Part shown: positions 16,734-54,635 of the stretch, in pieces | Layout: every line of letters begins with the position of its first letter | Numbering within the stretch: the first letter of the stretch is position 1 | Virus record (IMG/VR): IMGVR_UViG_3300000101_000005 | From: a virus | Taxonomy: Duplodnaviria; Caudoviricetes | DNA: 64,000 nt | Strand: one strand, 5' to 3' | The notes under the pieces: model-generated | The model's database searches: none | What the model was told of the DNA's origin: nothing | Seen by the model: only the letters and a program-made list of their open reading frames with translations | Position numbers and translations under genes: made by a program

Positions 16734-16746
16734 GATGAGATATTAA

Positions 16747-18615: not shown

Positions 18616-18636
18616 GATGAAAATAGGAGCGTATAA

Positions 18637-21362: not shown

Positions 21363-21799
21363 AAAACATTATTATTTTTAGTACTGATAGATCAAAGGTG
21401 ATATCGTCTCAGGACTATAATAGCGAGTTTGCTGAAAGACTTACCGCGCAAGGCGTACCTCACAAAGTTATTGATTTAGATGACGCAAATGAATATTGGT
21501 GGGGAGATTATGCTAGTGGCGAAGTAAGATCTCTTAATGATATACCGTTAATTGAAGAAGTAGCGATTGACGAAGTAGTTAACAAGCAGATTCTTGTTAA
21601 GTATCCTGTACACAAGCAACTTAATATTATTGCAGAATGCTTAGAAAATGCTGGAATTCCGCTTACAGATGACTTTATTGCTATGCGTAACTACGTTAAG
21701 CAGAAAGTTGATAACCACAATACTGCTGTTCAAACGTACAAAGATCAACCAGGTGTATACAGTTTTTACCCTAAGCCGTTACCACCAGAAGACGAGTGA
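21359..21799 (+). CDS. Hypothetical protein, possibly a tail-fibre assembly/chaperone
   Basis: 146 aa, translationally coupled (ATGA). The KYPVHKQLNII segment and position resemble fibre assembly proteins; weak call. Confidence 0.4.
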   Translation: MKNIIIFSTDRSKVISSQDYNSEFAERLTAQGVPHKVIDLDDANEYWWGDYASGEVRSLNDIPLIEEVAIDEVVNKQILVKYPVHKQLNIIAECLENAGIPLTDDFIAMRNYVKQKVDNHNTAVQTYKDQPGVYSFYPKPLPPEDE

Positions 21800-21805
21800 A
21801 GGTAG

Positions 21806-21812
21806 ATAAATA
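21806..21812 (+). promoter_or_regulatory. T4-like late promoter motif ATAAATA
   Basis: Intergenic GATAAATAC, followed by an AGGAAG ribosome-binding site and ATG 21840. Confidence 0.6.
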
Positions 21813-21839
21813 CAACAGTAAACTAGGAAGAAAACACAC

Positions 21840-23603
21840 ATGGCATATCAAGTAGATAAATTTAACGGAACATTTTTAACGTCAGTAGAAGACGGAACTA
21901 TTGATACCACTACGGATATACGTTTCGTTGGTAAAAACTACGCAGGATACGGTGAAGTACAGAACGAAAACTTCTTACATTTACTAGAAAACTTTGCGAA
22001 TACTACTGCACCACCAAAAGCAGTCACTGGTCAAGTTTGGTTTGACAGTGCTAATAAGAAAATTAAGTTTTATGACGGCACACAATGGAAAACTACCAAC
22101 GGTGCTGAAGTAGCATCAGTTGCTCCTTCAGGATTAGGAGTAGGAGAATTTTGGTGGGATACATCAGCAAAACAATTATATGCATGGTCAGGCGGAGAGT
22201 TTGTCTTAGTAGGACCAGAAGCATCACCAGATCTTGGTGCTAGTGGAGCAGTTGCACAAGTTGTTAAAGACACAGGTAACACAAACCATTCAATTTTAAA
22301 AATTAATGCAGGTGGTAAAACAGTTGCAATTATTTCACAAACAGAATTTACACTAAACAGTTCACTTAACCCTATTGACGACTTTACGTTAGTTAAAAAG
22401 GGTATTACAATGGCTAAAGCCGATGCTAATGGTGTTACATCAGATAGTTATGTATACTGGGGAACATCATCTAACTCATTAAAGCTAGGCGGCATTGCTG
22501 CTGATCAATACTTACAAAAAGGAAGTATTACCTTCAACCAGGAAATTAACTTCCAAGATTCAGGTTATAAAGTAGGTGACCAAAGCGATTTTAGATTAAG
22601 AGTTGAAAACGATGACGAAATTGTTTTTGAAAGTGTTCTTGGTAACCCTATTAACTTTATTATTAATGACGGCGGATCAACAAGAAAGAATGTATTAGAT
22701 ATTACAGCAGCTGGAGTAGTTCCAGGTATTGACAGTTCGTTTACATTAGGCACAGCAACACTTGCTTGGTCAGAAGTACATGCTGATGCAATTACAGGGC
22801 CGTTAACAGGTAACGTAACAGGTAACGTAACAGGTAATACAAAAGGTAGCTTACTTGCTAACGATTCAACTGTTATGATTGACGGTGCTACTAAAAACAT
22901 TGGTTATGTAGGCGCAAATATTTACGGTACATTGTTTGGATCAGTTCAAGGTAACTTGACTGGTACAGCATCAGATGCAAGTGCATTGAATGGTATTACA
23001 CCATCTGTATCAGTTCCTGCTTCAGGAAACAGTATTGTTGTTAGAGATTCGTCAGGTGTAATTTTTGCTAATACATTTAACGGTACAGCAACGTTTGCAG
23101 ATAGAATTAAAATTGACGATACTGCAACAGACAGTGATCCTAATTATAAGACTGCTAAAACAACAGCATCAGCAAGTTCAATTGCTGCAAGAAATTCAAG
23201 CGGTGACTTAATTGCTAACTTATTCCAAGGTACAGCAACCGCAGCTAGATATGCTGACTTAGCAGAGAAATATTTAGCAGACAAAGAATATGAAGCTGGT
23301 ACAGTTGTATCAGTTGGCGGAAACGCAGAAGTTACTGCATGTAGTGAGGGCGATAGAGCGTTAGGTGTTGTTTCAGCACAACCTGCGTTTATGATGAATT
23401 CATGGTTAGAAGATGGAACATACATTGCACTTAAAGGTCGTGTACCAGTTAAAGTTATCGGCAGTATTGCTAAAGGAGATAGATTAGTTGCTGCTGCGGA
23501 AGGTTACGCTACAAAAGCTGACAGCCATGCAGACGTATTTGCAATTGCAATAGAAAGCAATTCAAACTCAGGAACAAAAATTATTGAAGCGGTAGTACTA
23601 TAA
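21840..23603 (+). CDS. Tail fibre protein (paralog family) with C-terminal intramolecular-chaperone-like (peptidase G2 type) domain
   Basis: Shared N-terminal module. The C-terminus ARYADLAEKY...GTVV...GVVSAQPAFMMN...IALKGRVPVKVIGSIAKGDRLV matches my recollection of autoproteolytic chaperone domains of phage fibres. Confidence 0.65.
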   Translation: MAYQVDKFNGTFLTSVEDGTIDTTTDIRFVGKNYAGYGEVQNENFLHLLENFANTTAPPKAVTGQVWFDSANKKIKFYDGTQWKTTNGAEVASVAPSGLGVGEFWWDTSAKQLYAWSGGEFVLVGPEASPDLGASGAVAQVVKDTGNTNHSILKINAGGKTVAIISQTEFTLNSSLNPIDDFTLVKKGITMAKADANGVTSDSYVYWGTSSNSLKLGGIAADQYLQKGSITFNQEINFQDSGYKVGDQSDFRLRVENDDEIVFESVLGNPINFIINDGGSTRKNVLDITAAGVVPGIDSSFTLGTATLAWSEVHADAITGPLTGNVTGNVTGNTKGSLLANDSTVMIDGATKNIGYVGANIYGTLFGSVQGNLTGTASDASALNGITPSVSVPASGNSIVVRDSSGVIFANTFNGTATFADRIKIDDTATDSDPNYKTAKTTASASSIAARNSSGDLIANLFQGTATAARYADLAEKYLADKEYEAGTVVSVGGNAEVTACSEGDRALGVVSAQPAFMMNSWLEDGTYIALKGRVPVKVIGSIAKGDRLVAAAEGYATKADSHADVFAIAIESNSNSGTKIIEAVVL

Positions 23604-24505
23604 TGGTAACAACAGGCACACAGATCCTATCAACAGACCTCAACAGCCTGAGAAACAAAATTTCTGACGTTATGGGTACCGGTGTTGGTACATTTGGATA
23701 TGGACAATCAGTTAACAGTTCAACAGTCATTGCTGGTCAAACAGTATTAAAGTCACACTTTGATGCAATTCGGTTTGACATTGTAAATGCTTATTTTCAT
23801 CAAAACGGAGTAGTACCAACAGCAACTATTGCTTCTATTGGAGATCCTATTACAGCATCATCAAGTGATCCTTTTAACGGATATAACACACTTGCTGACG
23901 AATGTAGAAATGAAAGATTTGATTGCGATGCCGGCTTACTAACAGCGGCAGTTAAAGATACAAAAAGCTATACATCTGCATGGGGTACAAGTGCAGAATA
24001 TGTAATAACTGTAACATTTAGTAATGCTAATGAAGCAAGATATTTTTGGAACTCTGGAAGTAGACTAAGATTTACTACAGGAAGAGGATTAGGATCAGCA
24101 ACAGCACAAAACGGTGCATGGACTAGTTTACTTTCAACTGTGGGTAGACAAGTAATCGGCGGAAGATTACCAGACGGGCTGAATAATATATACATGCTTA
24201 CAAATGTATACCAAGATTTATATAATTTATCTGCTAGTACGCCATATTCAGCAAACAATTACAAGATTCAAGGCAAGTGTGATGTGGCAAGTAACTCCGC
24301 AGGAACAGCCGCAGTATTTAACTTTAAGGTTTTATTGACTGACAGTTACGTTGATCCAGGTGCACCAGCGCCAGGCGATCAAGTTGACGGCACACTTAGT
24401 ATTGATGTAGAAGAATTAAAAGCTACAGGAACATTACAACCAAGTGGTGCTGCATTTTCTATTACGAGTCCATCGTATTCTGGAACCAGCATTAGTGCAA
24501 CATAG
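23603..24505 (+). CDS. Virion structural protein (paralog A)
   Basis: Ser/Thr/Gly-rich 300 aa. Shares ARYFWNSG, AQNGAWTSLL and PYSANNYKI with the next gene. Confidence 0.55.
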   Translation: MVTTGTQILSTDLNSLRNKISDVMGTGVGTFGYGQSVNSSTVIAGQTVLKSHFDAIRFDIVNAYFHQNGVVPTATIASIGDPITASSSDPFNGYNTLADECRNERFDCDAGLLTAAVKDTKSYTSAWGTSAEYVITVTFSNANEARYFWNSGSRLRFTTGRGLGSATAQNGAWTSLLSTVGRQVIGGRLPDGLNNIYMLTNVYQDLYNLSASTPYSANNYKIQGKCDVASNSAGTAAVFNFKVLLTDSYVDPGAPAPGDQVDGTLSIDVEELKATGTLQPSGAAFSITSPSYSGTSISAT

Positions 24506-24518
24506 ACACTTGTTGTAG

Positions 24519-24524
24519 TAAATA
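24519..24524 (+). promoter_or_regulatory. T4-like late promoter motif TAAATA
   Basis: Intergenic GTAAATAC upstream of an AAGGA ribosome-binding site and ATG 24544. Confidence 0.5.
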
Positions 24525-24543
24525 CTGCTGTTAAGGATATTAT

Positions 24544-25572
24544 ATGACGACCGTACACGCAACAATTAGTAGAAACGACTACAATGCATTATACACTCGC
24601 CTTGAGCAAGTGATGGGCCCTGCTGACGGCACAGTATTATATGGTTGGGGCCAAACAATGAATGCAGCAGGAGTTTCAGAAGGTCAAAAAGTGTCTGTAG
24701 AAGAATACGGTAGGTTAATTACAGACATGTATAATGCTTACAGGCATATATATGGTTCAAATCCTCCTACTAATTGGGGAAGTTGGCCTAATAACATTAG
24801 TGCTTCTCAAAAAATTAAAGCAAATACTCTTACTAATGACGGAACATACAATACACAGCCTTATAGAAGATGGAATGATTTAATTATTGCACTAGAGGCT
24901 GCAAAATATACCATACCACCTGCAGCGGTAGCATCATCTACAACACATAGTAATGCAGTATCGCCAACAGGTACATGGTCGACTTCTGCTCAAGTATTAG
25001 TTACTTTTACATGGTCATCAGCATTAGCCGCTAGACACTTTTTTAATAGTGGTGGACAAATTCAACTTACAAGTAGTTTCAGCAGTATTAGTGGTTCAGC
25101 CCAAGACGCTTCTTGGAGAAGTTTACTGCAAACAGCAAGTACACAGACATTTGGAGGACAACAACCAGCAGCAGGTGTTAATCCTAATGACAATGGAAAC
25201 TTTTATAGATGTACAAACGTTTATAGCACACCTTGGTATACAGCTATTGCTAGTAGTCCTTACAATGCAAACTATTATAGATTATATGCAAGAACACCTG
25301 GGGTATTAGATAACTCAAGTGGTAGTGCATATCAACTAGAAATGTCAGCAGTTTACAATGACGATCACGTTGGATTAGGCGGACCGTCAACATCAGGTAC
25401 TCCGCAACAAGGACCAGGTACTTATGGACCTGATACAGTAGGTCCCGGTTCACTTTATCTTCAAACTGTTACCAGAAAAGCAGTCGGTACCATCAATCTT
25501 TACCCCACAGGATCACAAGCATTCAATATTGAAACGCCATCGGTAACACCAGGCGGATTCGTACTCAATTAA
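24544..25572 (+). CDS. Virion structural protein (paralog B)
   Basis: Shares ARHFFNSGG, AQDASWRSLL and PYNANYYRL with the preceding gene. Confidence 0.55.
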   Translation: MTTVHATISRNDYNALYTRLEQVMGPADGTVLYGWGQTMNAAGVSEGQKVSVEEYGRLITDMYNAYRHIYGSNPPTNWGSWPNNISASQKIKANTLTNDGTYNTQPYRRWNDLIIALEAAKYTIPPAAVASSTTHSNAVSPTGTWSTSAQVLVTFTWSSALAARHFFNSGGQIQLTSSFSSISGSAQDASWRSLLQTASTQTFGGQQPAAGVNPNDNGNFYRCTNVYSTPWYTAIASSPYNANYYRLYARTPGVLDNSSGSAYQLEMSAVYNDDHVGLGGPSTSGTPQQGPGTYGPDTVGPGSLYLQTVTRKAVGTINLYPTGSQAFNIETPSVTPGGFVLN

Positions 25573-25595: not shown

Positions 25596-25602
25596 ATAAA
25601 TA
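25596..25602 (+). promoter_or_regulatory. T4-like late promoter motif ATAAATA heading the glycosyltransferase block
   Basis: Intergenic CATAAATAT, then a GGAGG ribosome-binding site and ATG 25632. Confidence 0.6.
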
Positions 25603-25631
25603 TTAAGTGCTACTATAACTGTGGAGGACAT

Positions 25632-25982
25632 ATGGAAGAACAACTAAAAAAAGCCTTGGATTTTAGCAAGTACAGAGAAACTTTTGCTGTACAGCGTAAA
25701 ACTTTAAAGGAAAAAATTGATGCTAGATTAACATACGGTGTTAATGGCGGCATATTTAAGATCAATAGAGAACTAATTAACTTCGTTCAAATGCTACTTT
25801 CAGTAGATAGAACCGAAGGAGTAGTATTACTTGATGTTAATGATAATCCTATATTGATTGAAAATCTTGCAGATTTTAAAGATATCATACTTGATAGATA
25901 CACAACATCAACATTAGAATATTACGAAGAATACCAGAAGCTCAAAAAGAGCAGATCCGTAGAAAAACTTATAGAAGTATAA
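25632..25982 (+). CDS. Hypothetical protein
   Basis: 116 aa with a strong GGAGG ribosome-binding site; no recognisable motif. Confidence 0.6.
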   Translation: MEEQLKKALDFSKYRETFAVQRKTLKEKIDARLTYGVNGGIFKINRELINFVQMLLSVDRTEGVVLLDVNDNPILIENLADFKDIILDRYTTSTLEYYEEYQKLKKSRSVEKLIEV

Positions 25983-25983
25983 T

Positions 25984-26832
25984 ATGGATAAAGGAATCGT
26001 AATATTTGCACATAACAGTCGAAGTTTAGACTATTCTAAACTAGCATTGGTCGCAGGCGGCCTTGCTAAAAAGCATCTCGGCTATCCAGTTTCATTAATC
26101 ACAGATAAGTCAACTGTTGATTATATGGAAGAAATAGGTACTGCAGATAAAGCAAAAGAAATCTTTGACAGCCTTATTTTTGTAGAGCGTCCTCCAACAC
26201 AGCAATACAGAAATCTTCATGATGGAAATGATTTTGAAGCAGTACCTTTCGATAATTCAAACAGACCAAATGTTTGGGATATTACACCTTATGAAAGAAC
26301 ATTATTGTTAGATTGTGACTATCTAACATTTTCAGATACTTTAAACAGTTATTGGGATGTCGAACAAGACTTCTTAATCTCACATGAGTATAATGATATT
26401 ATGGGAACACGAGCAGGTTACCATGACAAGTATGTTTCGGATACTGGCGTTAAATTGCTTTGGGCTACAACAGTTATGTTTACCAAGAACGATCAAACAA
26501 AAGTACTTTTTGATTTAGTACAATACATACAAAAAAATTACAAGTTCTTTGCAGACACATACCGTTTTGATCCTAGACTATATAGGAACGATATTAGTTT
26601 TGCAATAGCTAATCATATACTAAATGGATTTCAAGAAGCAGGTACAGAATATAAATTACCGTCAGTGTTTTCTACAATAGATAGAGATATGTTAGTTGAT
26701 GTAAAAGGTAACACATTACAATTTTTATTAACCAATGAAGAACTAGTTGCTTCGTCATCAGGTAAAGATGTTCATGTAATGAATAAAAAAAGCATTGAAA
26801 GAAACTTTGACAAACTAATGGAGTTGATATGA
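25984..26832 (+). CDS. GT-A fold glycosyltransferase-like protein (GT8-like)
   Basis: TPYERTLLLDCDY (DxD), LWATTVMFTK, RNDISFAIA and VHVMNK fit a GT8-like layout. Confidence 0.6.
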   Translation: MDKGIVIFAHNSRSLDYSKLALVAGGLAKKHLGYPVSLITDKSTVDYMEEIGTADKAKEIFDSLIFVERPPTQQYRNLHDGNDFEAVPFDNSNRPNVWDITPYERTLLLDCDYLTFSDTLNSYWDVEQDFLISHEYNDIMGTRAGYHDKYVSDTGVKLLWATTVMFTKNDQTKVLFDLVQYIQKNYKFFADTYRFDPRLYRNDISFAIANHILNGFQEAGTEYKLPSVFSTIDRDMLVDVKGNTLQFLLTNEELVASSSGKDVHVMNKKSIERNFDKLMELI

Positions 26833-27668
26833 ACTTTGGATATCTAATTGTTGTTGCAACTTCTGAAGAATACAATTATGCACAAATGGCATATGCTCTT
26901 GCATTAAGTATTAAGAATACACAAAAAGAAGGTTACGATAAAGTTGCATTAGTAATTGATGATAAAACTCAAATAGAAAATTTTGAATCTACTTGGGTCT
27001 TTGATGAGATTATTGAATGGGACAAGAAAGGTTTTTGGGACGGCCGTTCTTATATGGACGAGCTAACACCGTGGGAACACACTGTATGTTTAGATGCAGA
27101 CATGTTGTTCTTTAGAGATTACAGTCATTGGATTGATTATTTTGTTGCAAATTCTGAACTGTATGTTGCTAACAAAGCATACACATATAGAGGAGAAGTA
27201 GTAACTAATGATTTTTATAGAAGAACATTTACTAAAAATGAATTACCAAACTTATATTCATTCTTTACATTCTTTAAAAAAGATAGTAAACTAGCAAATG
27301 ACTTCTTTAATTTACAGCGTTCTATAATGGACAATCCAAATGAATACACTAATTTGTTTTTAACAAAGCATACACCTAAAGTTATAGGAACTGATGAAGC
27401 ATTTGCAATAGCAGCAAAGATATTAGATATCACAGACGATATTGCATACCCGTTAGGATTTCCAAGAGTTGTACATATGAAAGGCGGTGTACAAAATTGG
27501 CCATGGCATGCTGATAAGTTTTCAGATCATGTAGGATATTACTTAAATGATAAAGGCAAATTAAAAATAGGTAGTTATCAACAAAACGACATTGTACATT
27601 ATGTTGAAAAAGATAAAATGAATTTAGAAACAATTAATGTACTGGAGGAAATAGCATGGAAGAAGTAG
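26829..27668 (+). CDS. GT-A fold glycosyltransferase-like protein (GT8-like), paralog
   Basis: TPWEHTVCLDADMLF (DxD), NLYSFFTFFKK, GTDEAFAIA and VVHMKG parallel the previous gene. Confidence 0.6.
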   Translation: MNFGYLIVVATSEEYNYAQMAYALALSIKNTQKEGYDKVALVIDDKTQIENFESTWVFDEIIEWDKKGFWDGRSYMDELTPWEHTVCLDADMLFFRDYSHWIDYFVANSELYVANKAYTYRGEVVTNDFYRRTFTKNELPNLYSFFTFFKKDSKLANDFFNLQRSIMDNPNEYTNLFLTKHTPKVIGTDEAFAIAAKILDITDDIAYPLGFPRVVHMKGGVQNWPWHADKFSDHVGYYLNDKGKLKIGSYQQNDIVHYVEKDKMNLETINVLEEIAWKK

Positions 27669-28306
27669 AAGAATTTATGCCCGACTTTGACGAGTGGCTT
27701 AAAAATTATGAAGAACCAGCACGTAGATTTGGTACAGCATTTGACCCAGATACAGGACAACTAATTTCAGTAGGTCCGTATTCGGCAATAGAAATGGATT
27801 ATAGCAAAAACGTTGTTGAGATTGACGAAGATCTTGCTATCAAAATTATTGACGGCGACATCCATATTAGTAAATGCTTTTTTGATACTCGTGAAGGTAA
27901 GTTTGAAATCACAGAAGAAAAAGTATTATCAAAAATTGATGACGTACTACATAGAATTATTGATAAGCGTTACTTAGATGAAGAAATAAAACCAGACATC
28001 TATCTTACATATAACTTAGCTGCCAGTAAACTTACAGTAGAACTAAGTGAAGAGTATGGTGGTACAAGAGTTTTAGAAAAACAGTGGCAACCAGCAACAC
28101 CAAGAAATGTATTTTGGGGAGGTGAAACAACTTTATCTTTTACAGTTGCTGATTATAATGATCCACACTTTCCGCAAAAAACTTTTGATGTTACACTTGA
28201 AGAGTTAGAAGGTAAGTCTGTAACAATTGACGATGTAGACATTACAGGAAAGTTTAGTGTGTTTACTCGTAGACTGTTTAAAAACTATGTACTAGAGGAG
28301 ATTTAA
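27656..28306 (+). CDS. Hypothetical protein
   Basis: 216 aa acidic protein, coupled within the operon; no motif recognised. Confidence 0.55.
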   Translation: MEEVEEFMPDFDEWLKNYEEPARRFGTAFDPDTGQLISVGPYSAIEMDYSKNVVEIDEDLAIKIIDGDIHISKCFFDTREGKFEITEEKVLSKIDDVLHRIIDKRYLDEEIKPDIYLTYNLAASKLTVELSEEYGGTRVLEKQWQPATPRNVFWGGETTLSFTVADYNDPHFPQKTFDVTLEELEGKSVTIDDVDITGKFSVFTRRLFKNYVLEEI

Positions 28307-29212
28307 ATGCGGGTGGCTGAATTTGACGTATTCTTTTTATCTTATGATGAACCTTTTGCTGATTTGCATTATGCAGATCTATGCAATAAGTTACCATGGG
28401 CTAAACGTGTACACGGTGTAAAAGGAAGTGATCATGCACATAAAGCATGTGCAGAACAATCTGAAACTGATTGGTTGCTTACAGTTGACGCAGACAACAT
28501 AGTATATCCTGAATATTTTAATCTTGACCTAGACATGTCAGAAGAAGAAATTAAAGTATATAGTTGGTGTGGTAAGAATACTGTTAACGGATTACGTTAT
28601 GGAAACGGCGGATTAAAGTTATGGTCTAAGGATCATTTACTTAATATGAAAACGCATGAAAATGCAGATAGCGAAAGAGCGCAAGTTGACTTTTGTTGGG
28701 AAACAGGTTATAGAAACTTTCCAGTAACATATAGCGATACAAAAGTAAATGGCAATCCATACCACGCATGGAGAGCAGGGTTTCGAGAAGGTGTTAAAAT
28801 GACATTATTTGATGGTCTAAAATTACCACCTATGGAAATTAAAGAAAGAATTTGGTGGCATAATATTCATAGACTTAGAATGTGGTCAACAGTTGGATCA
28901 CATGCAGAGAATGGTATAATGTCGATACTAGGGGCAAGGCAAGGAACACACATGACCAACTGCACAGATTGGGATCATATACAAGTTAGAGATTTTGAAA
29001 TGCTAGGCGAAATATGGAAAGAGAAAGCAGAACATCTTTCAAAAGATAGCGAAGCATGTATTGCTGAAATAAAACGTCTAGGAGACGAAATTAAATTAAA
29101 CTTAGGTCTTGATTGGGTTTGGCTAGAACCCGATGCAAGTAGATATACAATGGATCTATATGACGAAGCATTGAACCTAGGTCAAACCTACTATAGTAAA
29201 AAATATGTATGA
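28307..29212 (+). CDS. Glycosyltransferase-like protein (GT-A, DxD)
   Basis: FDVFFLSYDEP...VHGVKGSDHAHKACAE...WLLTVDADN, then YGNGGLKLW and AWRAGFREGVK. Confidence 0.55.
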   Translation: MRVAEFDVFFLSYDEPFADLHYADLCNKLPWAKRVHGVKGSDHAHKACAEQSETDWLLTVDADNIVYPEYFNLDLDMSEEEIKVYSWCGKNTVNGLRYGNGGLKLWSKDHLLNMKTHENADSERAQVDFCWETGYRNFPVTYSDTKVNGNPYHAWRAGFREGVKMTLFDGLKLPPMEIKERIWWHNIHRLRMWSTVGSHAENGIMSILGARQGTHMTNCTDWDHIQVRDFEMLGEIWKEKAEHLSKDSEACIAEIKRLGDEIKLNLGLDWVWLEPDASRYTMDLYDEALNLGQTYYSKKYV

Positions 29213-30842
29213 TATCTTTTTTATTAGTGATTCTAAGGTTAACGTAAGTTCTTGGAATATTTTCAAGGCACGTTTCCCACACGCACAGAAAATAGAAAAC
29301 TGTGAAAGCTATGAAATACTTAATAAAAAGACTCTTACAAAAAACTTTTGGGTAGTATGGGATTGCTTACACTTAACTCAAGACTTTGATTTTACATATA
29401 GACTTACTGAATGGGACAACCAATATATTCATGTATTTAAGAATGGCGAACACTATGATGGTGTATGCTTATTTCCTAAAAACTTAAACGTAACAAACAA
29501 AGAATGGAAGTATAGATTCTTTACAAATAAAAAAGAAATTGATATAGTAGCAAGTCAACCTAAGCCCTACGACATTGTTAAACTAGATAGTTATAACGGA
29601 CTTGTTACAGCACAAGAAATTGCACATTCAGACTTCTTACTATGTATACCTAATGATGTAGTTCCAACTGATATTCCACAATATCAAGTTCCTGCTTGGG
29701 ACAAAGATGTTGTTCATGTTTTTAAAAATAATAAAACTTATGATGGTATTTTTATTTGCCACAAAAATAATAAAATTGCTAAAAGAGAATTCGATTACAG
29801 ATTCTTTACAAATAAAAAAGAAATTGATATAGTAGCTAGTAATCCTAAGAAGTGGGAAGTATTTAATTTAGAAACGTTCGACGATTACAAACAAGCTCTA
29901 GAGAAAGCAACAGGAGATATGTTTTGGGGTGTATATTCTGATTTAAATATTAGTGATAATTTTAAATTTGATTATTATATTCCTAAGTATGATAGTTATC
30001 ATAGAAAACTTACTCACTGTTTTCAAAACAGCTACTGGTATGACGGAGTTACATTGTTTTCAAAAGAGCGTCCTGTAACAGAGCGTGAGTTTAAATCAAG
30101 ATTCTTTACTAATAAAAAAGATATAAAAATAAACAGTAGTGTACCAACGTCATATGATATTGCGTTTATAAGTTATAAAGAAAAAAATGCAGACAAACAC
30201 TTTAATGAACTACAAGACATTATAAGAACACAAGACCCTACTGTAAAATTACGCTGGATACGTGATGTTAAAGGAATACATCAAGCTCATATTGCAGCAG
30301 CAGAATTGTGTGATACAAATATGTTTTGGGTAGTTGACGGCGATGCAAAATTAATTAAACACTTCAAATTTAATTACCGTGTTCCATTTTGGGATCAAGA
30401 TATGGTGCATGTGTGGCGAAGTAAAAATGCAGTAAATGATTTAGAATATGGATATGGTGGTGTAAAATTACTACCAAGAAAAGCAGTTATAGGTATTACA
30501 GATTTTACTACTGATATGACTACTAGCCTATCTCCAAAGTTTAAAGCTATGAACGAAGTAAGTAACATTAGTGTGTTTGATACAGATGAATATAGTACAT
30601 GGAAAAGTGCATTTAGAGAATGTGTTAAACTAGCAAGTAGAGCTATTAATAGACAAGATAACATGGAAACTGATAAACGTTTAGATATTTGGTGTAAAGA
30701 AGCAAAAGGAACTTTTGCAGAGTATGCACTTAACGGAGCAAAAGCAGGTAGAGCTTACGGAGTTGCAAACAGTAACAAGCCAGATAACCTACGTAAAATA
30801 AATGACTTTGATTGGTTAAAGGAACAATTTAATGCACGATAA
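29205..30842 (+). CDS. Glycosyltransferase-like protein made of four tandem related modules
   Basis: Modules end in RFFTNKKEIDIVAS-type repeats. The final module has FWVVDGDA (DxD), YGYGGVKLL and TWKSAFRECVKL, homologous to the preceding gene. Confidence 0.55.
   Translation: MYDIFFISDSKVNVSSWNIFKARFPHAQKIENCESYEILNKKTLTKNFWVVWDCLHLTQDFDFTYRLTEWDNQYIHVFKNGEHYDGVCLFPKNLNVTNKEWKYRFFTNKKEIDIVASQPKPYDIVKLDSYNGLVTAQEIAHSDFLLCIPNDVVPTDIPQYQVPAWDKDVVHVFKNNKTYDGIFICHKNNKIAKREFDYRFFTNKKEIDIVASNPKKWEVFNLETFDDYKQALEKATGDMFWGVYSDLNISDNFKFDYYIPKYDSYHRKLTHCFQNSYWYDGVTLFSKERPVTEREFKSRFFTNKKDIKINSSVPTSYDIAFISYKEKNADKHFNELQDIIRTQDPTVKLRWIRDVKGIHQAHIAAAELCDTNMFWVVDGDAKLIKHFKFNYRVPFWDQDMVHVWRSKNAVNDLEYGYGGVKLLPRKAVIGITDFTTDMTTSLSPKFKAMNEVSNISVFDTDEYSTWKSAFRECVKLASRAINRQDNMETDKRLDIWCKEAKGTFAEYALNGAKAGRAYGVANSNKPDNLRKINDFDWLKEQFNAR
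29514..29836 (+). repeat. 38-bp perfect direct repeat inside a CDS (29514-29551 and 29799-29836), with a partial third copy near 30099-30120
   Basis: AGATTCTTTACAAATAAAAAAGAAATTGATATAGTAGC occurs twice, read directly from the sequence. Confidence 0.9.
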
Positions 30843-32199
30843 GGAAAGAATAGAAAAATTCATACCTATCATGGACGAACTAAGTCCTACATTCTGTTTG
30901 GCCAAATGGCATCATACAACACTATACTTAGGTACAGGAGAAACACACAGTTGTTATCACCCTGCTCCGCATAAAATACCATTGCATGAAATTGAAGCAG
31001 ACCCAAGTGCATTGCATAACACACAACAGAAAAAAGCAGAACGTCAAATGATGATAGACGGCAAGAAGCCTAGCGGTTGCGACTATTGTTGGAATGTCGA
31101 ATGTATGGGTAAAGATTACATTAGTGATCGTAAAGAACGTAATGCAAGTATATACACTCCAGAAAGATTTAACGCAATTAAACAAGAGCCAATGGCAAAT
31201 GTAAATCCGCAATATGTTGAAGTGTCATTTGGTAATGAATGTAACTTTAAGTGCGGATATTGTCACCCTAAACATTCTAGCAGTTATTATAAAGAAATTG
31301 AAAAGGAAGGTCCGTACACTATGGTTAAGAACCATAGGAATGATATTGACTGGTTTAAAATACACAAAGATGAAGAAACAAATCCATATGTTAAAGCATG
31401 GTGGAAGTGGTGGCCTGAGTTGCGTAAAACACTTACAATTTTACGTATTACTGGAGGCGAGCCGTTACTACAGCAAAGCACATGGAGAGTGTTCGACGAA
31501 CTTGAAAAGAATCCTTGCCCTAACTTAGAACTAAACATCAATACTAACTTAGGTGTAAAGCCTATCCTTATTGAACGATTCACTGACAAAGTAAACAATT
31601 TAGTTGAAAAGGGTTGTATCAAAGACTTTAAAATTTTTACTAGTATTGATACATGGGGACCACAAGCAGAGTATATTAGAACAGGATTAGATTTAGAGCT
31701 TTGGCAAAAGAACTTAGACATATACATGACTAAAACTAATATGCCTTTAACATTTATGGTCACGTTTAATATTTTAACTGTAACTAACTTTAGTACACTA
31801 TTGCAGAAGTTCTTAGACTGGCGCATAAAATATAATAGCGATAATCAAACTAAATGGCAGAGAATTAGATTTGATACTCCGTACCTAAAAGAACCTTTAC
31901 AGTATGATATGAATATTTTACCTAAAGATAAATTTATGCCATATATGAAAAAGCACTTGCAATTTATTATTGATAACATGGACGATCAGGATAAGCATAA
32001 ATTTAGCGAGTTAGAATACGAAAAGTTTAGACGTGTAGTAGACTATATGGAAAGAACACAGTACGATGTTAACAGATTGACAGAAGGTCGTAGAGATTTT
32101 TATCAATGGTTTACTGAATATGATAAACGCAGAAATGTTAACTTTACTAATACATTTCCTGATTTAGAGGACTTCTACTATGACTGTCAAGTCATCTAA
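30832..32199 (+). CDS. Radical SAM protein with N-terminal twitch/SPASM-like domain
   Basis: CNFKCGYC motif, ILRITGGEPLL, and N-terminal CLAKW...SCYH...CDYCW. Confidence 0.85.
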   Translation: MHDKERIEKFIPIMDELSPTFCLAKWHHTTLYLGTGETHSCYHPAPHKIPLHEIEADPSALHNTQQKKAERQMMIDGKKPSGCDYCWNVECMGKDYISDRKERNASIYTPERFNAIKQEPMANVNPQYVEVSFGNECNFKCGYCHPKHSSSYYKEIEKEGPYTMVKNHRNDIDWFKIHKDEETNPYVKAWWKWWPELRKTLTILRITGGEPLLQQSTWRVFDELEKNPCPNLELNINTNLGVKPILIERFTDKVNNLVEKGCIKDFKIFTSIDTWGPQAEYIRTGLDLELWQKNLDIYMTKTNMPLTFMVTFNILTVTNFSTLLQKFLDWRIKYNSDNQTKWQRIRFDTPYLKEPLQYDMNILPKDKFMPYMKKHLQFIIDNMDDQDKHKFSELEYEKFRRVVDYMERTQYDVNRLTEGRRDFYQWFTEYDKRRNVNFTNTFPDLEDFYYDCQVI

Positions 32200-33376
32200 A
32201 ACATTTTGTATATTGCCTTGGCTACACATGTATGTGAATCCAGACGGATCGGTATTACCTTGTTGTGTTGGTGAATGGGACAAACCCTTAGGTAATGTAA
32301 GACAGCATACAATTAAAGAAATTTGGAATGACAAACCTTACAAGCAAATACGTAAGAATATGCTTGAAGGTAAGCGTTGCGTAGAATGCCAAGCATGTTA
32401 TAATATAGAAGATGGCGGTGCAGAAAGCTCAAGAACACATGCTAACCGTAATCCATACTTTGGTGATACTACAGGGTTAATAGCACACACAGAAGATGAC
32501 GGAACGCTACCAGTAATGCATCTAAAACACTTTGATGTACGTTGGAGTAATATTTGTAACTTTAAATGTCGTAGTTGTAGTAGCACATACTCTAGCACAT
32601 GGGCGCAAGAAGATAATGCACAGGGTGAAAAGAAACCTATTTTTATTTTAGCAGATGGTAATGACAACGATAAGTTGTATAACCAGTTCCTTCCGCACTT
32701 TAAAGATATTGAAACATTCTACTTTGCAGGCGGCGAGCCTTTACTTACAGACAAACATTACGACATACTAGAACACCTTATTTCAATAGGTAAAACAAAC
32801 GTGAAGTTAGAGTATAATAGTAACTGTAGCGTGTTAAAATACAAGTCTAAGAGCGTCTTAGAGCTATGGAAACACTTCGATACTATACATATAGGCGCAA
32901 GTCTAGATCATTATGGTAGTAGAGCAGAATACATTAGATCAGGTACAGATTGGAATTTAGTTAAAAACAATATACAAAAGATAAAACAAGAATGTCCGCA
33001 CATTAAAATGCAAAGCAATACAGTTGTTAGCATTTTTAACTTATATACATTAACAGACTTTTTTGATTATGTGTTAAAAGAAGGCTTCTTTGATATTGAA
33101 GATTATTTCCCTCAGATGTATAACATACAATATCCAGAGTATTATACAGCATCGGTATTAGATGATTCATTTAAAACAGAAATTATTGAAAAGATACAAA
33201 GTAAGAATTATAATAAGCATATCGATAACATGTTGAAAGGTGTTGTAAGTTATATAAACAGTTCTAAGTTTAATGATAAAACAAGACAACAATTTAAAAA
33301 CCGTACACAACATTATGATATAATTAGGAACGAAAATTTTGCAGAAACATTTCCTGAATTGAAAAGGTTAACTTAA
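32180..33376 (+). CDS. Radical SAM protein with N-terminal twitch/SPASM-like domain
   Basis: CILPWLHMYVNPDGSVLPCC...CVECQAC precedes CNFKCRSC and FAGGEPLL. Confidence 0.85.
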   Translation: MTVKSSKTFCILPWLHMYVNPDGSVLPCCVGEWDKPLGNVRQHTIKEIWNDKPYKQIRKNMLEGKRCVECQACYNIEDGGAESSRTHANRNPYFGDTTGLIAHTEDDGTLPVMHLKHFDVRWSNICNFKCRSCSSTYSSTWAQEDNAQGEKKPIFILADGNDNDKLYNQFLPHFKDIETFYFAGGEPLLTDKHYDILEHLISIGKTNVKLEYNSNCSVLKYKSKSVLELWKHFDTIHIGASLDHYGSRAEYIRSGTDWNLVKNNIQKIKQECPHIKMQSNTVVSIFNLYTLTDFFDYVLKEGFFDIEDYFPQMYNIQYPEYYTASVLDDSFKTEIIEKIQSKNYNKHIDNMLKGVVSYINSSKFNDKTRQQFKNRTQHYDIIRNENFAETFPELKRLT

Positions 33377-34614
33377 TGAACTTTTACTTTGATACTACAG
33401 ACGAATCAACAGAAAATTTAGCTCATCTTTCTACCACAGATCAAACTGATTGGTATCTAACATCTAAAGGAACTGTTGTTAAACAAACTTTACGCAGTAT
33501 GAAAAAGCCTGTGCAAGAATTAGTAAACTGTCAAACTTCGCCTGGCATATATTATATTGATGTTAATGGTGATCCTTGTTGGTGGACAGGACTTAGCTCT
33601 GTACATAACGGACCAACAGATATTATAACTGCATTACCAAAGAATATTGTAAAACTAGTAAAGAAAAAAAGATTAAGACTTGTAATTGGTGCTGACAAAG
33701 AAGGCGGCCCTTTCATACACAGGTCGTTAGGTGACGGTTGGCAGCGTATACATGATGCTGCAATTGAAAGAGGACTACCACCAATGTCTGTTTATATTAT
33801 GCAAGGAAGCCAATTGGTAGAACAGCATTACGAAGATTGGTTAGAAAAAACAGGCAATGCACGTATGTTTGAAGTTGCATATTCAAATCACTTCTTAAAA
33901 ATATTTATGAATCAATCTATGCCTTACAAGCCGTTAATTAAAGCCGCAATGTACAACGAAGATAGTAAAGCATTTAATAGTTTAAATAGGGTGCATAGAC
34001 CGCATAGAGCTGCACACGTAACAGACTTAGGCATTAGTGGACTATTAGACAAAGGTACTGTTACATGTAACGAAGTTAAAGAAGGCGAAGACCTAAATGC
34101 AGAATACTTGATTGGTAAAGAGAATTACGCAAGACACAAAGAGTTTACGCCAAGATTTTTTGATGGAGACTGGAGCGTTACAAACGCTGCTAATAGTTTT
34201 AATGCAGAACTATATGCAAACACGTTACTAACAGTTGTAACTGAAACTATATTCTTTGACGACAGCGTATTTTTAACAGAAAAACTGTTTAAACCTATTA
34301 TGCTTGGACATCCTTTTATTACAATTGCATCAAGAGGAACACTTGCTGGGTTACGTTCATTAGGATTTAAAACAGACTTTAAATTATTTAGTAAGCCCTA
34401 CGACTTAATTGTAGATCCATTAGAACGTTTTAACACTGTACAACAAAATTTAAAAGAGTGGATCAGTCTTGATTTTAAAACTAAGCAAAGACGTTTACTA
34501 CATGCATATCCTGCTGTACAACATAACTTTGAACATGCAAGAACACAAGACTTTTATAAAGATGCAATAACTAATTGTATAAAATCGGCGGAGAAATACT
34601 TTGAAACAGTTTAA
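33376..34614 (+). CDS. Hypothetical protein with GT10/exostosin-like C-terminal glycosyltransferase motif
   Basis: VVTET...FLTEKLFKPIMLGHPFI...LRSLGF resembles the TEK nucleotide-sugar binding motif of GT10-like enzymes. Confidence 0.45.
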   Translation: MNFYFDTTDESTENLAHLSTTDQTDWYLTSKGTVVKQTLRSMKKPVQELVNCQTSPGIYYIDVNGDPCWWTGLSSVHNGPTDIITALPKNIVKLVKKKRLRLVIGADKEGGPFIHRSLGDGWQRIHDAAIERGLPPMSVYIMQGSQLVEQHYEDWLEKTGNARMFEVAYSNHFLKIFMNQSMPYKPLIKAAMYNEDSKAFNSLNRVHRPHRAAHVTDLGISGLLDKGTVTCNEVKEGEDLNAEYLIGKENYARHKEFTPRFFDGDWSVTNAANSFNAELYANTLLTVVTETIFFDDSVFLTEKLFKPIMLGHPFITIASRGTLAGLRSLGFKTDFKLFSKPYDLIVDPLERFNTVQQNLKEWISLDFKTKQRRLLHAYPAVQHNFEHARTQDFYKDAITNCIKSAEKYFETV

Positions 34615-35392
34615 CAAATATAAAAGATGTTTTACATTTGGTTGTAGTTTTACTAGATACAAATGGCCAACCTGGGCTGACATTATCAAACAAGAGATAC
34701 CGGAAACTATAAACTACGGAAAAGCCGGAGCAGGTAATCTTTATATTTCTAATCAATTAGTAGAAGCAAATTTAAGATATAATTTTAACAAAGATGATTT
34801 AGTTATTATTATGTGGAGTTCAGTTACACGTGAAGATAGATATAGGCACAAAAGTTGGATAACATCAGGAAATATTACAACACAAAATAATATCTCTGCT
34901 AAGTTTGTATACAATTGGTTTGATTATAGATTTTATCTAATGAGAGATCTAGGACTTATAGAATTAACAAGGCAGTACATGAAGAACGGCCTTGCTGATT
35001 TTCAAATGTGGAACATGGCATCTTTTGAGATTGACGATATGATCTCAAATAACCTAAGTGATGAAATGAAAGATACTAATTATGATGATATAAAACAGTT
35101 GTATGCTCCAACATTAGCAGCAATAAAACCAGATATACTTAGTACAGTGTTTGACGGTGTATGGCCACAAACACCAATACGTGGAATCAGCGGCAACGGT
35201 CAAACTGCTGATTATCACCCTACTCCTGCTCACCATTTAGAATACATTTCTAAATGCTTACCAAATCATGATATAACAGAAAAGATGAAACAATTTGTTG
35301 AACACACAAATCAAAAAGTATTAAAAGCAAGAAATTTTCATGACTTAGAAAAATGGTGGAACGAACAAGCTAACACACCGGGATGTTTATAA
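34601..35392 (+). CDS. SGNH/GDSL hydrolase-like protein
   Basis: FGCSFT near the N-terminus, NYGKAGAGN, and a C-terminal DYHP (DxxH-like). Confidence 0.5.
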   Translation: MKQFNKYKRCFTFGCSFTRYKWPTWADIIKQEIPETINYGKAGAGNLYISNQLVEANLRYNFNKDDLVIIMWSSVTREDRYRHKSWITSGNITTQNNISAKFVYNWFDYRFYLMRDLGLIELTRQYMKNGLADFQMWNMASFEIDDMISNNLSDEMKDTNYDDIKQLYAPTLAAIKPDILSTVFDGVWPQTPIRGISGNGQTADYHPTPAHHLEYISKCLPNHDITEKMKQFVEHTNQKVLKARNFHDLEKWWNEQANTPGCL

Positions 35393-36537
35393 TGGCCTGT
35401 TTAAACAACGATAATTTACCATATCTTATAACCTACGATGATAATAATCCTCAGAAAGTTACTATAGATACCAATCCTGCTGAACTAGGACGTATCAAAC
35501 TAAAACAAGATTACTATTTCATAATGTTTTCTGATGCAAGAAGTTTTAAATATTTTCCTTTAGATACGATTTTAGATCAAGAAACGATTCTTAAATTACA
35601 ACTTAAACAGATTTCATTAGTACTAGACAACTCGTTAGAGTTCTTTTATGACAGTTTAGATGCCATTTATAATAATATTATACAAAAATATGACATACCA
35701 ACAAGTCAAGTTGTGTTTTTATCTGGTGTACCTACTATGTACGAATACGCATTAAGTTATTGTAAGAAAAATAATGTAGAGCCTATTAAAATTATGTGGT
35801 TTACTTTATTTGAAAATACTGGCAAAGATACAATACTACAGCGTAGAAGTTTACCTACCATGGAAAAGAAACGCAAGTACTCTAAAAAATATCTTAATCT
35901 AAATAGACGCTGGCGTTTGCACAGACCGTTAATGGTCACACTACTTCATGATAGAGGATTACTAGATGATGGATATGTTAGCCTAGGACCGTCAGACGAT
36001 AATTTAGATTGGAAACATGTATGGAACCGATTGGAAACAAACCACGAAACCCATAAAGAGATTTCTCGTGTTTTAAAACGTTCTTCTGACGTACAACAGT
36101 TAACGCCAATGTATCTTGATGAAAAGGATCTTGTTACTAATAGAGCAGAACACCAACTATCAATACATAAGTACTATCAAGAAACATATTTTAGTGTAAT
36201 TAGTGAAACAACATTCTACGAGGACGTTCCGTTCCTAAGTGAAAAGATATTTAAATGTATTGGTATGGGGCATCCGTATGTGTTGATAGGTTCTCCAAAT
36301 ACATTGCAATATCTTAAAAAGTTAGGATACAGATCTTATCATCCTCATATAAATGAAGGATACGATAAGATTGAAGATCACGGAGATCGAGCAATAGCAA
36401 TTGTAGATGAAATTGAAAGATTGTGCAATTTAAAAGGTGCAGAATTTAGAGAATGGCATTCCAAAGTGCGTGAAATTGCACAATATAATTATAGGGTTTT
36501 ACAAGGTAGAAACCACTTAATAAAGCCTATGAATTAG
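35392..36537 (+). CDS. Hypothetical protein with GT10/exostosin-like motif (paralog of 33376-34614)
   Basis: LNLNRRWRLHR...VISETTFYEDVPFLSEKIFKCIGMGHPYV...LKKLGY. The ATG at 35392 overlaps the previous TAA. Confidence 0.45.
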   Translation: MACLNNDNLPYLITYDDNNPQKVTIDTNPAELGRIKLKQDYYFIMFSDARSFKYFPLDTILDQETILKLQLKQISLVLDNSLEFFYDSLDAIYNNIIQKYDIPTSQVVFLSGVPTMYEYALSYCKKNNVEPIKIMWFTLFENTGKDTILQRRSLPTMEKKRKYSKKYLNLNRRWRLHRPLMVTLLHDRGLLDDGYVSLGPSDDNLDWKHVWNRLETNHETHKEISRVLKRSSDVQQLTPMYLDEKDLVTNRAEHQLSIHKYYQETYFSVISETTFYEDVPFLSEKIFKCIGMGHPYVLIGSPNTLQYLKKLGYRSYHPHINEGYDKIEDHGDRAIAIVDEIERLCNLKGAEFREWHSKVREIAQYNYRVLQGRNHLIKPMN

Positions 36538-36543
36538 GTGTCT

Positions 36544-36633
36544 AAAACGCATTTTAAGCGTCATACAGCGTGGTTAACATGTATAAGCATTACTTGTGTA
36601 TCAGTGCAAAAAGCCAGGCTTAAACAGCGTTTT
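36544..36633. other. Intergenic multi-stem inverted-repeat element
   Basis: AAAACGC-AT-TTTAAGC (36544-36559) pairs with GCTTAAA-CA-GCGTTTT (36618-36633). It encloses ATAC/GTAT and GCATT/AGTGC sub-stems. Confidence 0.5.
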
Positions 36634-36645
36634 AAGGTTGAATTG

Positions 36646-36651
36646 TAAATA
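36646..36651 (+). promoter_or_regulatory. T4-like late promoter motif TAAATA
   Basis: GTAAATAG, then an AAAGGA ribosome-binding site and ATG 36680. Confidence 0.5.
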
Positions 36652-36679
36652 GTAATAACTATTCGAAAAGGACAGATTG

Positions 36680-37858
36680 ATGAAAATTGGATTTATTGGA
36701 CTTGGCAAATTGGGTATGCCCTGCGCAGAAGAAATTGCTAAAAAAGGACATGCTGTATTAGGATATGATGTAGATAAATCATTGAATAGCGACTATGTCA
36801 TTGTAGAAGAAACAATCAAAGAGGTAGCAGAAGTAGCAGATATCGTATTTGTTGCAGTACCTACTCCACATGATCCAAACTATGATGGTAAAGCACCAAC
36901 AGCACACTTAGAACCTAAAGACTTCCAATACGATATTGTTATTGACTGTTTAAAAGAAGCAAACAAGTATATGAACAAAAAGCAAATGCTTGTGCTTATT
37001 AGTACAGTTTTACCTGGTACAGTAAGACGTGAGTTTGTACCATTAATAACTAACACACGTTTTGTTTACAATCCTTATTTAATTGCCATGGGTACAGTTG
37101 CTTGGGATATGGTTAATCCTGAAATGGTAATGATTGGTACAGAAGATGGCAGCGAAACAGGCGATGCCAAAGAGCTTAGAGATTTTTACGATACATGTAT
37201 GGAAAATAATCCAAGATATGTAATTGGTACTTGGGACGAATGCGAATGTATCAAAGTATTTTATAATACATTTATTAGTACTAAAATTGGACTTGTAAAC
37301 ATGATACAAGACGTTGCTGAAAAGCAAGGTAACATAAACGTTGATGTAGTTACTACAGCACTTGCAGAAAGCACACAGCGTATTATGGGACCAAGTTATA
37401 TGAAAGCAGGAATGGGAGATGGCGGAAGTTGTCACCCAAGAGATAATATTGCACTTAGGTACATGGCAAAGAAACTAGATCTTGGTTATGATATATTTGA
37501 TGCAGTTATGAATGCTAGAGAAGTTCAAGCACGAAACGTTGCTGTAAAACTTTGTGATATTGCAAAAGAAAAAGAACTTCCTATTCTTATTAATGGCATT
37601 GCTTATAAACCAGGCGTACCTTACATTGATGGAAGTTATGCTTTACTAGTTGCACAGTATTGTACGGAGTATGGTTACACTCCTATGCAAGTTGATCCAT
37701 TAGTATTTGGTGCTGATCCAGGACCTTTCAGAGCGTGTGTCCTTTTAGCTCATCCAGAGCTTTATGTAGAACTATCAGATGATTCAGTTGTAGTTGACCC
37801 GTGGCGTTCTTACACATCGGATAAGCACGAAGTTATTCATTACGGAAATACAAGATAA
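36680..37858 (+). CDS. ugd: UDP-glucose/GDP-mannose dehydrogenase family protein (copy 1)
   Basis: KIGFIGLGKLG Rossmann motif, FVAVPTP, ISTVLPGT, YNPYLIAMG, catalytic GGSCHPRD and GIAYKPG. Confidence 0.85.
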   Translation: MKIGFIGLGKLGMPCAEEIAKKGHAVLGYDVDKSLNSDYVIVEETIKEVAEVADIVFVAVPTPHDPNYDGKAPTAHLEPKDFQYDIVIDCLKEANKYMNKKQMLVLISTVLPGTVRREFVPLITNTRFVYNPYLIAMGTVAWDMVNPEMVMIGTEDGSETGDAKELRDFYDTCMENNPRYVIGTWDECECIKVFYNTFISTKIGLVNMIQDVAEKQGNINVDVVTTALAESTQRIMGPSYMKAGMGDGGSCHPRDNIALRYMAKKLDLGYDIFDAVMNAREVQARNVAVKLCDIAKEKELPILINGIAYKPGVPYIDGSYALLVAQYCTEYGYTPMQVDPLVFGADPGPFRACVLLAHPELYVELSDDSVVVDPWRSYTSDKHEVIHYGNTR

Positions 37859-37889
37859 AAAAAGAGAGTTAGTATTTCTACTAACTCCC
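37857..37889 (-). terminator. Rho-independent terminator at the convergence of the two arms
   Basis: The minus strand reads GAGTTAGTA-GAAA-TACTAACTC followed by TC and a T run (9-bp stem, GNRA loop). Confidence 0.85.
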
Positions 37890-37902
37890 TAAGTGTGAGA
37901 AA

Positions 37903-54606: not shown

Positions 54607-54635
54607 ATTATATGATTATTTAGACGATTAGTCAA
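54607..54635 (-). promoter_or_regulatory. Sigma70-type promoter TTGACT-N17-TATAAT for the tgt/dpdA-GT-folE unit
   Basis: Near-perfect consensus on the minus strand. The spacer also contains a TAAATA motif; an AGAGG ribosome-binding site follows. Confidence 0.75.

Follow-up and report, generated by a model that had tools for sequence, protein, structure and literature searches.

What does a phage build with a dozen genes rich in candidate glycosyltransferases (GTs) that lie directly behind its tail-fibre genes, and onto what is it built? The question is posed by a 64,000-nucleotide stretch of DNA (the window) from the Caudoviricetes virus record IMGVR_UViG_3300000101_000005, in which twelve + strand open reading frames (ORFs), A to L, fill positions 25632-37858 directly after the tail-fibre genes. 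That this block builds glycans is very probable. The fuller reading that we favour, with confidence a little short of even, is that in this uncultured marine jumbo phage it specifies a cytoplasmic pathway, expressed late, that assembles a glycan on an acceptor encoded by the phage itself, probably virion proteins; a genome of about 350 kb is estimated because CheckV rates 98 kb of relatives' contigs as 28% complete.

In such a pathway, L would supply a uronic-acid sugar nucleotide, G and H would tailor the nucleotide sugar or the growing glycan, and B, C, E, F, I and K would add sugars sequentially. J would add or remove an acyl group, with A and D serving as accessory proteins. The acceptor would be a virion protein, for example the fibres or the adjacent proteins of 300-342 amino acids (aa), and progeny particles would exit the cell bearing a multi-sugar glycan.

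The acceptor is taken to be phage-encoded, and most simply a virion protein, because late-type control and placement in the structural module occur in two very distant lineages. The same is suggested by the conservation of the enzymes (35-47% identity) across phages of hosts with differing surface glycans, by the absence of export or membrane machinery from the block, and by a separate − strand module that seems to cover DNA modification.

Organisation and control of the block

From A to K (25632-36537) each junction either overlaps by 1-20 nucleotides (nt) or leaves a gap of 0-1 nt, and an ATAAATA motif (25596-25602, + strand) stands 30 nt upstream of the start of A. A gap of 139 nt separates K from L (36677-37858, + strand), and within it a TAAATA motif (36646-36651, + strand) lies 26-29 nt upstream of the start of L. 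A to K make up a single predicted transcription unit, tightly coupled and headed by a conserved NTAAATA of T4-late-like type, and L is a second unit with its own motif. L and the first − strand gene converge, and a 12-bp terminator-like hairpin that separates them (37863-37890) is likely to mark the end of the unit. The G+C content of the block is 0.33-0.35, against 0.37-0.39 in the preceding fibre genes. An earlier note on this DNA, made from its letters alone, had described an ATAAATA-headed, tightly coupled run on one strand after the structural genes and a dehydrogenase gene with its own TAAATA motif; coordinates, strand and gene chain agree with the first description, and the second motif is present and widely retained.

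The late sigma factor of T4 recognises TATAAATA. The position of TAAATA is conserved upstream of A in 31 of 32 distinct relatives and upstream of L in 29 of 33, in both cases with diverged flanks, and the motif also precedes two fibre-region genes (in 9/10 and 15/18 distinct relatives). Upstream of the internal genes it was found in none of the distinct relatives compared (G 0/47, I 0/28). The + strand gene region has ten TAAATA sites on the + strand, of which five lie either 20-30 nt upstream of a start codon or where the giant gene ends. Across the 64-kb window ATAAATA is depleted four-fold (7 seen, 32 expected) and exact TATAAATA is absent where 9.5 occurrences are expected, which is consistent with selection against stray late promoters. 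Sigma-70-like sites show no enrichment in the block (57 found, 64 expected). A T4 gp55 query gave weak but repeated matches (27-39% identity, E 2e-7 to 4e-6) on the contigs of three of four block-bearing relatives and in the cultured Ralstonia jumbo phage RsoM2USA (MG752970; PMC8504454). A T4-like late promoter for the block is a reasonable reading of these sequence data. In RNA libraries, short contigs of low depth span parts of the block; they carry no information on strand, start or timing, and DNA carry-over could account for them. The late-type control proposed in the earlier note is supported by the conserved motif and by the weak gp55-like matches in relatives and RsoM2USA, and late timing is what we infer from them.

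Two other sequences recur in these control regions. A AAACCAGGTTTAAA-N-GCGTTT-like sequence is found upstream of the TAAATA of L (36540-36645) in many diverged relatives, and TGCTACTATAA recurs in relatives between the motif of A and its ribosome-binding site. Both may be regulatory or leader elements.

The predicted glycosyltransferases

Family scans with Pfam (E ≤ 0.01), PHROGs and NCBIfam returned nothing useful for A-F, I, J and K, and no significant match emerged when the families of C, D, E, I/K and J were run as profiles against the PDB. Profile comparison, predicted structure and conserved residues give a predicted tally of four GT-A-type enzymes, of which B and C are GT8-like whereas E and F are GT2-like, and two of GT-B type (I and K).

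Among the first four, E (28307-29212, + strand) can be assigned by structure. Its AlphaFold model (predicted local distance difference test, pLDDT, 77) has the GT-A nucleotide-diphospho-sugar transferase fold, and Foldseek searches of PDB, AFDB and BFVD with the model returned GT-A enzymes at probability 1.00. The best PDB match is the major-capsid-protein glycosyltransferase of the chlorovirus PBCV-1 (2p6w; E 1e-4, about 16% identity, with a low TM-score of 0.29-0.39), followed by GT2 enzymes. VIA Z scores are 9-11, at which nucleotidyltransferases and GT2 synthases rank equally high; E is read as a transferase because it has the DxD motif (D61-x-D63, invariant in 17 sequences) and is without the glycine-rich loop of nucleotidyltransferases. 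Neither E nor the C-terminal domain of F matched Pfam GT2 models at E 0.01 or better.

F (29205-30842, + strand) ends in a domain (residues 319-545) that is similar to E in BLASTP (E 3e-14) and retains an intact D-G-D (VDGDA). Ahead of this domain, residues 1-318 (29205-30158) consist of three tandem repeats of about 95-115 residues, degenerate versions of the middle portion of the GT-A domain of F itself, with the DxD lost. Repeat against repeat scores z 18-24, and repeat against the C-terminal domain z 6-10, a level reached in 0 of 300 shuffles. No likeness between the repeats and the E family was found by hhalign, the resemblance being solely to F's own C-terminal domain. In relatives F is shorter, at about 350 aa, and the number of repeats seems to vary. 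E and the C-terminal domain of F thus correspond to the pair that had been called DxD GT-like, and model and fold search agree on GT-A.

B (25984-26832, + strand) and C (26829-27668, + strand) are paralogues (hhalign probability 98%, E 2e-13 between the families) that share an invariant DxD and histidine; in B the invariant residues are D110, D112, D203 and H264. A profile of B built from 46 diverse homologues found as its sole PDB matches glycogenins, which belong to GT8 (E 0.0018; the alignment spans about 100 residues and brings the DxD motifs into register). Pfam GT8 (PF01501) was hit weakly, at E 0.086, by one of 22 members of the B family, and hhalign comparison with an alignment of only two bacterial GT8 proteins gave probabilities of 2-5% for B and C (0.4-5% across B, C and E), an alignment of too few sequences to be decisive. 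The proposal of two GT8-like genes therefore holds as far as a paralogous DxD pair with a weak but specific glycogenin match, whereas the Pfam GT8 level is missed. The B/C family is large, with 1,564 clusters at 50% identity; a word-indexed search with the B family returned unannotated close relatives alone, and no annotated distant relative stood among the 150 best profile matches. Insertions occur after residue 65 in some B-type relatives, for example P0158 (739 aa) and P0142 (546 aa); they consist of two to four repeats, each about 100 residues long, which match the Pfam carbohydrate-binding family CBM_5_12 (CBM5/12; in P0158 30.2 bits summed, cut-off 26.2).

The two GT-B enzymes are I (33376-34614, + strand) and its paralogue K (35383-36537, + strand). 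They are 33% identical in BLASTP (E 1e-20), and their joint alignment retains R205, R211, E302 and K303. The AlphaFold model of I (pLDDT 92, predicted template-modelling score 0.90) has a GT-B fold with VIA Z of 11-13.6 to many GT-B enzymes, including GT4, the protein O-glycosyltransferases Gtf3 and GtfC, a transferase of phage HY126, T4 beta-glucosyltransferase and GT10. The GT10 enzymes FUT9 (Z 12.0), FUT13 (Z 11.7) and Helicobacter pylori FucT (Z 11.4) tie with GT4, Gtf3, GtfC and the T4 enzyme. The GT10 Pfam model (PF00852) matched neither I nor K, and an Atlas feature search reached GT10 clusters at no more than 0.78-0.79; by eye, an E-T...L-T-E-K stretch resembles the FucT motif. The pair that had been labelled GT10-like is therefore of GT-B fold, but GT10 is not singled out among the GT-B families. 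In the Atlas, proteins of other phages with the I/K fold are fused to nucleoside diphosphate (NDP)-sugar epimerase/guanosine diphosphate (GDP)-mannose-dehydratase or methyltransferase domains. Structures were thus predicted for E and I, and both adopt the GT folds (GT-A and GT-B) that had been expected of GT-like ORFs.

DNA modification is the role for which phage glycosyltransferases of either fold are best known, and the block might accordingly glycosylate the phage DNA, or further decorate a modified base, before packaging. The model of I matches T4 alpha- and beta-glucosyltransferase at Z 11.5-12.1, the core of G and H resembles the nucleotide-acting enzymes viperin and MoaA, and the base-modification module of this genome contains a close paralogue of L. 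This module, on the − strand, is nevertheless separate and already holds a putative transferase and sugar genes of its own, among its genes being a second dehydrogenase copy (56292-57509, 60.5% identical to L), an epimerase and a radical S-adenosylmethionine (SAM) gene. It appears to serve DNA modification, and BLASTP found no similarity between the transferases of the block and any − strand ORF of the window. The block has a late-type motif, no early-type promoter and a position after the fibre genes, and six transferases with tailoring enzymes exceed the one or two transferases of T4 DNA glucosylation known from textbooks. DNA as the target is accordingly improbable.

Putative tailoring and precursor enzymes

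G (30832-32199, + strand) and H (32180-33376, + strand) are the two twitch radical SAM genes that the earlier note had recognised, and both match NCBIfam NF033640 over their full length well above its cut-off of 170 (G 313.2 bits, H 391.2 bits). They are 25% identical to each other and carry the twitch domain at the N-terminus. The invariant cysteines of the family are C126, C130 and C133 (CxxxCxxC; CNFKCGYC in G) together with the N-terminal C10, C70 and C73, and Pfam places SPASM at residues 10-73 and Radical_SAM at residues 123-274 of H. Their nearest solved relatives are viperin for the core (E 1e-7), BtrN for the twitch domain (E 1e-5) and MoaA, all enzymes whose substrates are nucleotides or sugar-like small molecules and not peptides. 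Bacterial homologues of G and H come mostly from the predatory Bdellovibrionota, from Flavobacteriales and from Alphaproteobacteria, and often stand in arrays. Four Bdellovibrionota contigs (L082:9914-17545, L095:10001-17334, L133 and L135) hold arrays of three to five paralogous twitch radical SAM genes within about 8 kb.

L is a divergent nucleotide-sugar dehydrogenase that, judged by its sequence, is nearest to uridine diphosphate (UDP)-glucose 6-dehydrogenases. It matches the Pfam models for the N-terminal NAD-binding domain (PF03721, 65.9 bits, cut-off 27) and the central domain (PF00984, 66.2 bits, cut-off 25.4) and has a GGSCHPRD active-site stretch. Where a UDP-sugar dehydrogenase had been proposed, Pfam thus bears out a nucleotide-sugar dehydrogenase, though at 163.4 bits the match to NCBIfam TIGR03026 lies under the curated cut-off of 189.8.

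J (34601-35392, + strand, with a TTG start) is a candidate SGNH-like hydrolase. Its invariant residues G14-C15-S16, G43, G45-N46 and D204-x-H206 follow the SGNH order, but with GCS for GDS and DxH for DxxH. Neither Pfam nor NCBIfam gave an SGNH/GDSL model match at E 0.01 or better, nor did PDB profiles match; in Pfam the family yielded weak leads to Lipase_GDSL_3 (1 of 31 members, E 0.3) and DUF6071 (2 of 31, E 0.07). The SGNH label given to J in the earlier note could not be upheld by any significant model match and comes down to motifs and these leads.

The remaining two proteins of the block are without recognisable family. A (25632-25982, + strand, 116 aa), the first gene of the operon, has no Pfam, PHROG or NCBIfam match, but relatives retain it and RsoM2USA gp354 shares 36% identity with it. 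D (27656-28306, + strand, 216 aa) is acidic and found no match in Pfam, PHROG, NCBIfam or PDB profile searches; its C-terminal 57 residues align with RsoM2USA gp351 (probability 76%, E 2e-5).

That A and D have no family and that small molecules are what the closest structurally solved relatives of G and H produce would suit a different outcome, in which the block yields a soluble product (for example an unusual nucleotide sugar, an analogue of a nucleotide, or a glycoconjugate set free on lysis) or modifies a non-virion protein of phage or host, the link to the fibres being positional. Six transferases in a coupled operon argue instead for an oligosaccharide on a defined acceptor, and a purely positional link would not explain why the block keeps its place among the structural genes in two distant lineages. 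We regard this outcome as decidedly improbable.

Distribution and synteny

A synteny survey had been proposed in the earlier note, and its outcome is that the block adjoins fibre genes both across the IMG/VR loci sampled and in the distant, cultured RsoM2USA. The sample consists of 80 loci kept from 183 IMG/VR stretches that were retrieved with the H gene. Across these loci, at 25-100% identity, the order of fibre genes, A to L and a strand switch is conserved. The 5' part (A to H) is fixed among relatives and the 3' part is variable: some lineages have J and one GT-B gene on the opposite strand, and in others extra genes lie between K and L, including homologues of 54628-56401. In three loci (L040:18749-21058, L044:18030-20371 and L052:18587-20925) homologues of the − strand genes 54628-55245 and 55772-56401, neither of which has a PDB match, adjoin L; in the window the same two genes adjoin the L paralogue. 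The dehydrogenase and the small genes look like a cassette moving between the two sugar modules.

Near-identical DNA is present in marine metagenomes from at least six studies. Among 50,697 phage records, megablast of the block found nothing, and tblastn of E and G found RsoM2USA as the sole match. In that phage gp354-348 correspond to A, B, C, the C-terminal part of D, E, G and F (GT-A domain); their order is the same, and a fibre-like gene precedes them. G is 37% identical to gp349, and identities over the shared core between the marine phages and RsoM2USA are 35-47%. A GDP-mannose-dehydratase-like gene of RsoM2USA adjoins its sheath gene.

One further occurrence is a 2.2-kb contig (L154) in a Crocinitomicaceae metagenome-assembled genome, which encodes homologues of E, F and G that are 54-75% identical. 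A piece of phage DNA that was binned into a Flavobacteriales genome is the probable explanation, and the contig hints at the host faintly at best.

What may be glycosylated

The placement of the transferase genes within the structural module is that of phage virion glycosylation systems. The enzymes of the block could also be at home in late remodelling of a host envelope glycan, be it lipopolysaccharide (LPS), capsule or another surface polysaccharide, with the transferases working peripherally on host lipid-linked intermediates; such remodelling could prevent superinfection or the trapping of new particles on debris. Bacterial surface-polysaccharide loci typically contain GT8 and GT2 enzymes along with UDP-sugar dehydrogenases and SGNH esterases, soluble transferases are able to act at the inner face of the membrane, and large marine cyanophages hold many such genes, which have been read as modifying the cell surface (PMC12801897). 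The block, however, encodes no membrane protein (no hydrophobic 19-residue segment reaches 1.6 in any of its 12 proteins) and no flippase, polymerase or initiating phosphotransferase, and late timing would leave little time for rebuilding an envelope. It lies within the structural module and not among host-takeover genes, and its core is shared by marine and Ralstonia phages, whose hosts are expected to have unrelated surface glycans. Envelope remodelling is for these reasons unlikely.

The preferred reading, glycosylation of a phage-encoded acceptor, has points that weigh against it. The acceptor is deduced from context, and a virion target is the weakest step. The fold of a glycosyltransferase is blind to the class of acceptor, whether protein, lipid, DNA or sugar, and in the model of I the DNA enzyme T4 beta-glucosyltransferase ties with protein O-glycosyltransferases. 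The assignment of B and C to GT8 and of J to the SGNH hydrolases is putative, the evidence from sequence being weak in both cases. Around the bacterial homologues of G and H the neighbours (an MFS transporter, PhoX and a cytochrome oxidase subunit) give no glycan context and no transferase of the block lies nearby. In some relatives the 3' part falls outside the late operon and intermingles with the second sugar module, with which genes seem to be exchanged. Finally, the fibre N-terminal domain is found in 96 phage records and the block in RsoM2USA alone, so that the two do not strictly co-occur.

A broader proposal is possible, if more doubtful: a widespread marine jumbo-phage clade and, in reduced form, RsoM2USA may hold a dedicated late pathway in which G/H make an unusual sugar and six transferases assemble a glycan of several sugars on the tail fibres or other virion proteins, the variable 3' set diversifying the glycan between lineages. 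If this is true, virion glycosylation would be a common and evolvable trait of abundant ocean phages.

Comparison with known systems

To our knowledge, glycans on phage particles are known from few systems, and in these they shield the virion from antibodies. The closest parallel in arrangement is found in mycobacteriophages, in which, as far as a secondary account conveys, virions are glycosylated by phage glycosyltransferases that adjoin the structural genes (Freeman et al. 2023 as cited in PMC12619734). The glycans there are on virion proteins, whereas here we infer the target, and the tblastn of E and G, whose only match was RsoM2USA, revealed no sequence relation between the two systems. 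We know of no radical SAM or sugar-nucleotide genes in mycobacteriophage virion glycosylation.

The chlorovirus PBCV-1 resembles the block in having a virus-encoded, cytoplasmic multi-transferase pathway that places a complex glycan on a virion protein, and E best matches the GT-A domain of its A64R-type enzyme (2p6w); PBCV-1 is nonetheless a eukaryotic virus, and the match indicates fold class alone. T4 alpha- and beta-glucosyltransferase are, like I, GT-B phage transferases, but they are products of single early genes and act on hydroxymethylcytosine DNA, in contrast to a twelve-gene late-type operon in a structural module.

Among marine phages, the 'LPS' clusters of the large T4-like cyanophages P-SSM2, S-SCSM1 and S-SCSM2R, which are myoviruses, likewise combine many glycosyltransferases with NDP-sugar enzymes and a radical SAM gene (PMC12801897). 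These clusters were not detected as homologues of E or G and are not described as a late operon fused to fibre genes, and the role of the many glycosyltransferase genes of large marine cyanophages is unsettled (PMC12801897). In the moraphages, an aquatic jumbo-phage lineage, four core groups of glycosyltransferases are reported (PMC12619734). The claim that such a system is barely described for bacteriophages is thus partly right: mycobacteriophage virion glycosylation and cyanophage glycosyltransferase sets are known, but the block differs from known systems in its gene families, its radical SAM pair and its single late-type operon fused to fibre genes.

True homologues of A, B, C, the C-terminal part of D, E, G and the GT-A domain of F are found in RsoM2USA (genes 348-355 and 358), which is without H, I, J, K and L and whose block genes are annotated as hypothetical proteins. 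This phage is cultured and carries the core genes, so self-glycosylation of fibres by large phages is directly testable. The block itself is conserved, abundant and fairly complex, and it unites uncharacterised parts, namely a subfamily of radical SAM enzymes, two families of transferases for which Pfam has no model, and two conserved proteins of unknown fold.

The structural genes upstream of the block

The region immediately before the block (14592-25572, + strand) holds four fibre paralogues, assigned by PHROG tail-fibre matches, two small genes and two paralogous proteins of 300-342 aa; a structural protein of 4593 aa is also encoded upstream. The fibre paralogues have a common N-terminal domain of 90 aa, which recurs widely among jumbo phages akin to RaK2, PA5oct and Atu_ph07, and several genes of this region have a TAAATA of their own (motifs at 21807 and 24519). 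Collagen-like repeats were not found in the fibre proteins, and hydroxylysine glycosylation of the mimivirus kind is for that reason unsupported. The two paralogous proteins just before the block (23603-25572) have a conserved Ser/Thr-rich C-terminal tail, roughly F-x-I-x-S/T-P-S/T-x-S/T-x-S-x-I-S, which is retained in relatives down to 30% identity and could be a structural strand or an acceptor site.

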